A stretch of 64,000 bases of DNA from positions 86,061 to 150,060 of the forward strand of contig CAYZYV010000002.1 in assembly GCA_964482735.1 (NCBI GenBank). The letters run 5' to 3'. Positions within the stretch are counted from its first letter, which is position 1. The number at the start of each line of letters is the position of its first letter. Shown in pieces: positions 54,437 to 55,978 of the stretch. The position numbers and the translations under genes are program-made. Under the pieces are notes generated by a model. That model saw nothing but the letters and a program-made list of their open reading frames with translations. It was not told where the DNA came from and searched no databases. The DNA is from an uncultured Candidatus Saccharibacteria bacterium. Lineage in GTDB: Bacteria; Patescibacteriota; Minisyncoccia; Phycocordibacterales; UBA9973.

Positions 54437-55978
54437 AATTGAATTATTCCACGAACAGCTTCCGCTACCCGTGCCTTGTTACGACTTATTCCCTGTCACC
54501 GAGCTTACTGTAGGCCCTCCTTCTGGAGAGACTTCGAGCACTCCCGGCTCCCTTGAATTGACGGGCGGTGAGTACAAGACTTGAGAACGTATTCACCGCG
54601 GTATGTCTGACCCGCGATTACTAGTAATTCCAGCTTCATGGGGTCGAGTTGCAGCCCCCAATCCGAACTGACGCCACTTTTCTTAGGATTTGCTCAGGGT
54701 TACCCCGTCGCGTCCCGTTGTGGTGGCGATTGTATTATGTGTGTAGCCCAAGGTATCAAGGGACATGCTGACCTGGCGTCATCCTCCCCTTCCTCCCCGA
54801 CCGAAAGACACAATTACTAAAAGTAATTATTTCCTTGGGTCGGGGCAGTCTCGTGTGACACGTATAACACACGATGAGGGTTGCGTTCGTTACCCCACTT
54901 AAGGGAACAATTCAAACCACGAACTGACGACGGCCATGCATCACCTGTCAATCTGTCTTGCGAGGGCTCGAGTTTCTCCGAGCTTTCAGATTGATTTCTA
55001 ACCTTGGTAAGGTTCTTCGTTTATCATCGAATTAAACCACATAATCCACTACTTGTGCAAGTCCCCGTCTATTCCTTTGAGTTTTAGCCTTGCGGCCGTA
55101 CTTCCCAGGCGGATCTCTTAACGCGTTAGCTACGTCTCTCAGAGGGTCGATACTCCGAAAGACTAGAGATCATCGTTTAGGGCGTGGACTACTGGGGTAT
55201 CTAATCCCATTCGCTACCCACGCTTTCGTGCTTGAGTGTCAGATATGCGTTAGTATAGTGCCTTCGCTTTTGGTGTTCCCCATGATATCAACGGATTTCA
55301 CCCCTACACCATGAGTTCCCTATACCCCCCACATTCTCTAGTATTGCCGTTTCGTTCGCGGTTCTCGAGTTAAGCCCGAGGATTTGACAAACGACTAACA
55401 ACACCACCTACGCACCCTTTACGCCCAATAATTCCGGATAACGCTCGGGGCTCTCGTATTACCGCTCCTGCTGGCACGAGATTAGGAGCCCCTTATTCAT
55501 GAGGTACCGTCAATAAACTTCTTCCCTCATAAAAGATCTTTACACACCGAAATGCTTCATCAATCACGCGGCGTCGCTCCGTCAGACTTTCGTCCATTGC
55601 GGAAGATTCTCGACTGCAGCCACCCGTAGGTGTATGGGCCGTGTCTCAGTCCCATCGGTGGGGGTCAGCCTCTCAGCTCCCCTAAGCGTCATAGCCTTGG
55701 TAGTCCATTACACTGCCAACTAGCTGATACTTCACAGGCCTTTCCCTAAGCGAAAAATCTTTACCCCGGAGGGACCATCGTGTATTAGCACACCTTTCGG
55801 TGCGTTATTCACGACTTAGGGGGAAGTTCCTATGTATTACTACCTCGTTCGCCACTAACTTTAAACGACCTTTGACTTGATGTAATCTCATCATCGGAAA
55901 ATATAAAGTCCGTTCGACTTGCATGCCTTATCCACGCCGCCAGCGTTCATCCTGAGCTAGGATCAAACTCTACTAAAA
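54437..55978 (-). rRNA. 16S ribosomal RNA (~1.54 kb, no large insertions)
   Basis: 5' end AGAGTTTGATCCTAGCTCAGGATGAACGCTGGCGGCGTG. Universal 530-loop GTGCCAGCAGGAGCGGTAATAC, 1390 region TGTACTCACCGCCCGTCAA and 3' AAGTCGTAACAAGG are present in reverse complement. Confidence 0.9.

Follow-up and report, generated by a model that had tools for sequence, protein, structure and literature searches.

A 16S rRNA tail without an anti-Shine-Dalgarno core, its covarying hairpin and predicted leaderless initiation in a Paceibacteria lineage

Loss of 16S rRNA's 3'-end anti-Shine-Dalgarno (anti-SD) motif has already been published for the Parcubacteria, and the 16S rRNA gene on the minus strand of the stretch of contig CAYZYV010000002.1 analysed here (the window, by which we mean the whole stretch of 64,000 nucleotides, or 64 kb) falls in that known category. 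In the accessible part of one survey just 48% of Parcubacteria have the anti-SD motif CCTCCT, lineages without it overlap the group without uL1, and bS21 is frequently absent (Tsurumaki 2022, RNA 28:1041, PMC9297842); a second source, likewise accessible in part, describes Candidatus Campbellbacteria and Wolfebacteria as scarce in Shine-Dalgarno (SD) sequences and without a conserved CCUCC (PLoS One 2024, PMC10783764), and Paceibacteria are reported to be without rplA and der and mostly without era (PMC12641178). The window agrees with what those accessible parts describe in that CCUCC(U) is lost at the 16S 3' end, SD sequences are scarce and the class-level group is the same, and its 16S sequence clusters with the motif-less Taylor-, Zambryski-, Nomura- and Adlerbacteria. 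It differs in lineage, the best full-length 16S match among those listed being a Candidatus Taylorbacteria metagenome-assembled genome (MAG) at 83.6% identity and the lineage standing outside the taxa named in the accessible text, and in having a covarying hairpin and promoter-like boxes abutting start codons, where that text deals only with motif absence or weak pairing. In the one open-access collection searched we found no description of either a covarying tail/trailer hairpin or a TATAAT-N6-ATG layout in the candidate phyla radiation (CPR), which is weak evidence of novelty.

Lim, Furuta and Kobayashi (2012, MBE, PMC3457768) had described concurrent loss of the anti-SD and of SD sequences in other bacteria. 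In the genomes concerned (insect endosymbionts, hemotropic Mycoplasma, some Flavobacteria) all 16S copies are without CCUCC, with C changed to U or A, and the accompanying loss of SD-like sequences, a tail that varies within groups and reduced genomes are shared with the window case. Here CCUCC is absent from the sole 16S copy in the window and from an independent assembly of the locus (L125, below), the variant tail is lineage-typical and common to related species, and neither SD-like nor tail-complementary sequences are enriched upstream of genes; those genomes, however, come from a few host-restricted species of unrelated phyla, whereas the window clade is a very large environmental radiation with a conserved tail hairpin. 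The SD-blind ribosomes of Bacteroidia (Jha et al. 2021; NAR 2026, PMC13000453), which work on A-rich leaders, resemble the window in initiating independently of SD sequences throughout the genome. Their anti-SD is still canonical, however, with bS21, bS18 and bS6 sequestering it, and such sequestration is ruled out here because CCUCC itself is gone from the 16S sequence. In F. johnsoniae, which is SD-blind, the anti-SD is needed to translate rpsU, whose autoregulation depends on it, and to mature the 16S rRNA, probably via Era and YbeY (PMC13000453), and the Era KH domain binds GAUCACCUCC (PMC10582724). Mammalian mitochondrial 12S rRNA shares with the window a bacterial-type molecule with helix 45 (dimethyl-A loop) and no anti-SD (PMC10582724), although the mitochondrion is an organelle that makes few mRNAs, relies on specialised factors and is evolutionarily unconnected with the window organism. 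Leaderless-rich prokaryotes (mycobacteria, Deinococcus, many archaea) are like the window in that a -10 or TATA box precedes the start codon by a short, fixed distance, which would let the transcript begin at the AUG. Leaderless-rich bacteria generally retain a functional anti-SD and use SD sequences on their leadered genes, and mammalian mitochondrial mRNAs are leaderless or near-leaderless. The window is unlike the leaderless-rich bacteria in that no SD route is left, and its leaderless transcripts are predicted from sequence.

Three features define the 3' end of the window gene.

54437-55978, minus strand: 16S rRNA gene (Rfam RF00177, SSU_rRNA_bacteria; whole model, positions 1-1533, 1340 bits with a gathering score of 50).
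54450-54473, minus strand: helix 45, CACGGGUAGC-GGAA-GCUGUUCGUG, 10 pairs with a GGAA loop (cmscan alignment).
54437-54449, minus strand: degenerate 3' tail GAAUAAUUCAAUU, aligned to GAUCACCUCCUUU of the model and without the anti-SD core (cmscan alignment; assembly L125).

An earlier note on this stretch had reported a tail without the canonical CCUCC behind a well-formed helix 45, and both observations, together with its transcription of the tail, are borne out by the alignment to the Rfam model, in which 10 of 10 pairs of helix 45 are formed and the 3' part of the gene aligns without gaps. The span it gave, 54437-54470, does contain the tail (54449-54437) but also takes in most of helix 45. 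At its 3' end the model's final 14 positions (gGAUcACCUCCUUu) align one by one to GGAAUAAUUCAAUU in the window; CCUCC is replaced by AUUCA, U1537 and C1538 (E. coli numbering) being the only core bases of the five that are kept, and G1530 and A1531 are also retained. No CCTCC occurs on the 16S strand from 54470 down to the RNase P RNA gene at 53963, and the sole CCTC in this interval belongs to a trailer hairpin. An assembly artefact is ruled out for the tail, because an independently assembled JGI metagenome contig, Ga0209099_1000736 (L125), which covers Obg, 16S, RNase P RNA and SecA and is 99.4% identical over 2.7 kb, has the same tail and trailer. Proteins of the window organism are present in NCBI, JGI, ENA and Logan assemblies, and two Logan contigs with SecA end short of the RNase P/16S region. 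The gene is still a 16S rRNA, and only its CCUCC sub-feature fails. We have high confidence that ribosomes here are unable to use SD:anti-SD pairing, since the CCUCC core is gone, and we think it likely that this is the functional, and probably the only, 16S rRNA of an ultra-small Paceibacteria (Parcubacteria, CPR/Patescibacteria) bacterium from a large anti-SD-less clade, in which initiation would be SD-independent and a hairpin has been retained in the tail.

The window has 34% GC, a standard genetic code and T4SS-pilin genes of a kind typical of CPR bacteria; its GC content and pilin genes are compatible with a place in the Parcubacteria. We compared 16S 3' ends across related lineages, as the earlier note had proposed, in a GTDB scan with one genome per species that used the 16S signature GTACTCACCGCCCGTCA (A1396U) and gave at least 120 loci; the counts that follow are among the matches listed. 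CCTCC is present in none of 50 sequences with the CACG-type helix 45 (49 GTDB species representatives and the window), which include Taylor-, Zambryski-, Nomura-, Adler- and Ryanbacteria and many entries named 'Paceibacterota', and in all 19 sequences of the neighbouring group with helix 45 CATCCGTAGC (Magasanik-, Uhr-, Falkow- and Moranbacteria), so that the tail variant is no chance event. The exact tail GAATAATTCAATTTGAA is common to six sequences, namely five species and the window, and truncated loci of Paceibacterota MAGs are 97% identical to the window over the last ~200 nt of 16S. When 60 near-full-length 16S sequences are placed in a crude neighbour-joining (NJ) tree, those of Paceibacteria type without an anti-SD form one clade, except for L034, which lies outside it on a long branch, and sister lineages of this clade have canonical tails. 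The window falls among Taylor-, Zambryski- and Adlerbacteria and Paceibacterota MAGs, with a Ryanbacteria sequence whose tail has the intermediate UCUCC (L029) basal in its subclade, and by these sequence comparisons it is placed within the Parcubacteria/Paceibacteria. A metagenome scan found the canonical tail GAUCACCUCCUUUCUA on the same helix 45 in 26 contigs, with 16S identities of 70-77% where the match was long. Because such distant 16S sequences join this helix 45 to a canonical tail, the helix sequence appears ancestral and not diagnostic of anti-SD loss, and the loss itself is placed inside the Paceibacteria-like radiation and not at its root.

Anti-SD-less tails on Paceibacteria-type 16S sequences were noted at loci L007, L011-L013, L034, L042, L045, L060, L067, L071, L075 and L110. 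Several of these GTDB species-representative MAGs are labelled 'Candidatus Saccharibacteria' and one 'Spiroplasmataceae', which suggests mislabelled records or mis-binned rRNA contigs.

The tail bases in the old anti-SD register take part in a small palindrome that reaches into the trailer.

54433-54443, minus strand: tail/trailer mini-hairpin UUCA-AUU-UGAA (arm covariation among relatives).

The 5' arm is formed by tail positions 7-10 (the old CUCC register) and the 3' arm lies just past the Rfam-annotated end, the tails of the window's subclade following the pattern GA-N-N-A-(A/U)-U-UCA-loop-UGAA. A MAFFT alignment of the tails is gapless and leaves the 3' arms out of register, and pairs were counted with a covariance model of helix 45 and the hairpin. 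In this alignment of 50 sequences the hairpin has 92% of its cells paired, and each of its four pairs has changed on both sides; sliding the partner column by 1-3 positions lowers the paired share to 23-47%. Helix 45 cells (46 distinct sequences) are 100% paired, with 3 covarying pairs. Among the closest relatives, sequence conservation ends directly after the hairpin.

A stem of 4 bp, three of them A-U, that is predicted to be unstable in isolation, together with the exactness of the palindromes, would also fit a signal at the DNA level, for example a protein-binding site, or the covariation could be a by-product of A/T-richness. We regard this as unlikely on three grounds. The arms change together in at least three ways, most sequences having UUCA/UGAA, four species (two lineages of the NJ tree) CUCA/UGAG, three lineages UCCA/UGGA and one GUCA/UGAC, and they stay complementary while the loop varies from 1 to 5 nt in length and also in sequence. 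A structure-free test finds the exact reverse complement of tail positions 7-10 at 2-9 nt downstream in 25 of 49 clade members (51%), whereas the swapped-partner control gives 6%. Finally, the same register is paired in canonical-tail CPR, where CUCC pairs with GGAG a few bases downstream in 17 of 21, and in a Peregrinibacteria/Gracilibacteria-type group, where CUCC/GGAG and UUCC/GGAA covary and 14 of 19 are paired, but in 0 of 18 Campylobacterota. Since the arms co-evolve and the register is kept in canonical-tail CPR, we propose, with low to moderate confidence, that the remaining constraint on tail positions 7-10 is structural, with a role in 16S 3'-end maturation or protection.

A scarcity of SD sequences upstream of starts, pointed out before for trxB, gpmI and pth among others, is upheld by 4-mer counts, G content and duplex energy with a working Campylobacterota control, and the three genes named are real and without an SD (trxB-like, 1895-2818; gpmI, 4550-6058; pth, 18198-18812). 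Gene starts were taken as the first ATG of long open reading frames, with the same naive calling in the window and in four sets of loci. The enrichment computed upstream of 48 window genes shows no SD signal, GGAG, GAGG or AGGA occurring at -20 to -4 in 6% of them and in 2% of control windows, whereas the same pipeline gives 26% versus 5% for the Campylobacterota; G content is 4-6% at -11 to -8 in the window and 37-47% at -9 to -7 in the Campylobacterota, and duplex energies with the canonical anti-SD GAUCACCUCCUUA relative to shuffled upstream sequences give z = -0.9 and z = -3.7 respectively. Loci of the anti-SD-less clade show no SD enrichment either (9%, with 11% in the control).

A re-coded SD might instead be at work, in which a new A/U-rich upstream motif pairs with the new tail or with a mature tail extended into the trailer. 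Organisms with pairing but without a conserved CCUCC are described in the accessible part of one source (PMC10783764), and the tail-complementary 5-mers AATTA, ATTAT and AAATT are frequent at -22 to -1 in the window. The enriched words, however, are generic A/T words and -10 boxes (ATAAT, TATAA), and the C/G-bearing complement words TTGAA, TGAAT and ATTGA have 0 occurrences where 1-2 are expected. When composition is controlled, pairing to the window's own tail is weaker than in shuffled sequences (z = +3.1, or +2.3 with 4 extra bases; +1.4 in the Campylobacterota control). The tail also varies among close lineages (UUCA, CUCA, UCCA, GUCA), which a genome-wide partner would not tolerate, and the candidate bases are already taken up in the tail hairpin. 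We therefore reject a replacement SD motif, to which we give very little probability; window mRNAs have neither an SD nor a motif complementary to the new tail.

A single window gene has a perfect SD, AAAGGAGG (AAGGAGG), 7 nt before its ATG. This gene (29523-29786, minus strand, with a leader to ~29860) has a TTGACT-type promoter and a strong terminator, and encodes an acidic 87-aa product without a Pfam match. It was considered as rpsU, in analogy to Flavobacterium, and rejected, the product being an acidic 87-aa protein and not bS21; in a genome whose ribosomes have no anti-SD, the gene gives the impression of having been acquired recently from a phage or organism that uses SD sequences.

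A different upstream signal is present in the window, where ATAAT and TATAA are the most enriched upstream 5-mers. Exact TATAAT lies 5-8 nt before the ATG at 11 of 58 gene starts and at 6 of 1944 other ATGs (p = 5e-14), and the spacing peaks at the single value of 6 nt: in 9 of 58 genes, and for 19 of 1944 other ATGs, exactly 6 nt separate the end of a -10-like hexamer from the ATG. Seven of 12 examples checked have an extended -10 (TGnTATAAT), and at least one also has a good -35. The sites are as follows.

8128-8133, minus strand: TGG-TATAAT, 6 nt before the ATG (8121) of a yceG/mltG-like gene, with -35 TTGAAC.
16991-16996, 28204-28209, 57461-57466, 61024-61029, 45423-45428, 4542-4547 and 56605-56610: further sites with the TATAAT-N6-ATG layout; start codons of these genes include 16984, 28197, 45416, 57454 and 61017.
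13511-13516, 12992-12997 and 24649-24654: TATAAT with N7 or N8 spacing to the ATG.

A normal -10-to-start distance would put transcription start at or next to the A of the ATG, and the mRNAs of the TATAAT-N6 genes are therefore predicted to be leaderless. By this layout the probable share of leaderless genes is about a fifth to a quarter, and we have moderate confidence that initiation may be described as largely leaderless. In addition, 17 of 57 genes overlap the upstream same-strand gene or follow it within 15 nt, and the leaders of the others are rich in A/U and poor in G. Among the window genes is a candidate helper that could support SD-independent initiation on such leaders:

18873-19991, minus strand: ribosomal protein bS1, 372 aa, three matched S1-domain stretches (Pfam PF00575, 4e-39).

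Peptide deformylase (Def) and formyltransferase (Fmt) are encoded in the window as well, so that the organism has at its disposal both initiation with formyl-Met and, in bS1, the usual helper for A/U-rich leaders. Literature searches gave nothing specific on leaderless mRNAs in Patescibacteria/CPR.

Further observations on window starts concern a hibernation-factor (S30AE/HPF) gene (23658-24041, minus strand) with the -10-like TATTAT 6 nt before its ATG, and riboswitch-like 5' leaders at 6059-6190 (minus strand, before gpmI) and 60429-60555 (minus strand, before a gene for a PF04020 holin-like membrane protein), a partial copy of which lies at 20230-20336 (plus strand, before lepB). The closing helix, AUCCCGU(A/U)(G)GAAGC and UUCGGU/CGCGGUC with ACCGAG/GACCGCG-ACCU(bulge)-GCUUCU(G/A)ACGGGAU, reaches the AUG, the two full copies show compensatory differences, and both have an internal UUAGCAGAU. 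No Rfam family matches these structured leaders, even at permissive E-values. They could provide translational control by masking of the start codon, without an SD.

The 16S gene is full length and present in one copy within the window, with no 23S gene after it, and Rfam at permissive E-values finds no further rRNA genes in the window. It has the following surroundings.

54411-54429, minus strand: stable trailer hairpin 1, GUCCCGAC-CUA-GUCGGGAU (minimum free energy, MFE, fold of tail and trailer).
54373-54399, minus strand: stable trailer hairpin 2, AUUAUGUGCCUC-AAUU-GAGCACAUAAU, which holds the sole CCUC downstream of the 16S gene (MFE fold).
54299-54324, minus strand: trailer strand of a helix between leader and trailer (a processing stem of RNase III type), 125 nt past the tail start.
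56005-56031, minus strand: leader strand of that helix, 26 nt before the 16S 5' end.
56188-56215, minus strand: likely 16S promoter, TTGACT-16 nt-TATAAT (read from the sequence).

The leader-trailer helix of the predicted pre-16S RNA has 28 bp and -35.1 kcal/mol (RNAduplex, 54299-54324 with 56005-56031) and encloses a 125-nt trailer with the two stable hairpins; relatives also have a GC-rich hairpin at the place of hairpin 1. Since it has its own promoter and this helix, we read the 16S gene as a separate transcription unit whose precursor has an RNase III-type processing stem and contains the tail hairpin.

This architecture bears on the possibility that the gene is a degenerate copy, or pseudogene, while a canonical 16S elsewhere in the genome does the work, as might be entertained given that the window covers 64 kb of a contig of at least 164 kb and that the gene is not linked to a 23S gene. 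We consider it highly improbable in view of the whole-model match at 1340 bits, the intact helices 44 and 45, the promoter and the 28-bp helix, and of a tail type conserved with compensatory changes in about 30 species among the matches listed. Two complete genomes of the wider clade, L071 (655 kb) and L101 (640 kb), have one listed locus each, neither with CCUCC, whereas the matches listed from the same GTDB scan include two loci of a multi-copy Halarcobacter genome, and a canonical tail is found in no clade member among the GTDB matches listed. An annotation or alignment artefact, with the true CCUCC tail displaced downstream past an insertion or intron, gains something from the frequent insertions in CPR 16S genes (here one of 36 nt near the 5' end) and from the length of the trailer inside the processing stem (125 nt), but is excluded for practical purposes because the stretch from helix 45 to the RNase P RNA gene has no CCTCC, the precursor is closed at 54299-54324 by the leader-trailer helix, and the tail aligns to the model by position, keeping the four bases named above.

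The RNase P RNA gene (53963-53605, minus strand) begins ~470 nt downstream of the 16S gene, and a tRNA-Lys lies upstream of the 16S gene on the opposite strand. Within the 16S gene, the 530-loop pseudoknot (E. coli 505-507/524-526) shows a double compensatory change, GGC/GCC to UCC/GGA, that alters the universal 515F primer site (GTGCCAGCAGGAGCGGTAA), and A1396 is changed to U within the 1392 universal primer site, a signature common to many CPR lineages and Campylobacterota.

Several points weigh against the reading of a functional anti-SD-less 16S with SD-independent initiation. The 16S copy count and the gene content refer to the 64-kb window, and its gene starts were called naively. Canonical-tail relatives in the CPR are also without SD enrichment (8%, with 15% in the control; n = 39, a small naive sample), and the absence of SD sequences is therefore not specific to anti-SD loss; such loci, which keep GAUCACCUCCUUU, include L004, L010, L016, L026, L033 and L036, among others. 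The hairpin pair counts come from an alignment fitted to the covariance model, the hairpin is not convincing in a second anti-SD-less subgroup with AAUUAAA tails, and its 4 bp amount to 0 kcal/mol in isolation, although it is present in the MFE fold of the larger tail and trailer context. The -10-like hexamers are common in DNA of 34% GC, and because a two-hexamer promoter scan of the A/T-rich window shows no enrichment (80 sites, with 75 in shuffles), the leaderless prediction rests on the spacing peak.

Taking these points into account, we still favour a functional 16S rRNA that lacks the anti-SD, and the following scheme would be consistent with it. Starts would be selected by two routes, one through leaderless mRNAs, with an often extended -10 TATAAT 5-8 nt before the ATG, and one through A/U-rich, G-poor leaders or coupling to the upstream gene (overlap or a gap of at most 15 nt), the genes of the second route presumably being served by bS1 and by direct recognition of the start codon by fMet-tRNA. 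Tail positions 7-10 keep the 4-bp hairpin with the first trailer bases, its arms co-evolving, most likely for maturation or protection of the 16S 3' end inside a pre-rRNA bounded by the 28-bp leader-trailer helix. Drawing on the literature, the anti-SD may have been free to drift once the use of SD sequences was negligible and its residual uses (rpsU translation and Era/YbeY-dependent maturation) were gone, the hairpin being kept. The genes rplA, rpsU (bS21) and era are not among the annotated genes of the window, which is part of the genome.

Other elements of the window lie away from the 16S gene.

30553-30679, plus strand: LOOT RNA, a structured intergenic RNA (Rfam RF03000, 86 bits).
34197-39646: complete type I restriction-modification system (hsdS, hsdM, hsdR), adjoining the region 40901-44630.
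40901-42712: prim-pol/AAA_25 replication protein.
43008-44570: large serine recombinase, abutting a tRNA-Asn at 44558-44630.

The region 40901-44630 is probably an integrated mobile element.

Pairing between SD and anti-SD is the textbook mode of start selection, and clades without it reveal the alternatives. Gene finders with ribosome-binding-site models will mis-call starts in such genomes, and Paceibacteria genes in standard hosts, or reporters in Paceibacteria, will need different signals. The hairpin and the TATAAT-N6-ATG layout make it possible to address, by concrete tests, how the 16S 3' end matures and how leaderless initiation works in a radiation of uncultured bacteria. A broader idea, which we put forward tentatively and with considerable doubt, is that CUCC is paired with the trailer in CPR generally, so that the anti-SD would be masked by its own RNA if the mature rRNA keeps the 3' arm, and that the window is one instance of a radiation-wide, RNA-based retirement of the SD. 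If true, such masking would explain the missing SD signal in canonical-tail relatives and the drift of CUCC to UUCA, CUCA, UCCA and GUCA with compensating changes in one Paceibacteria clade, a drift that would have gone with a switch to promoter-abutted, leaderless start codons.

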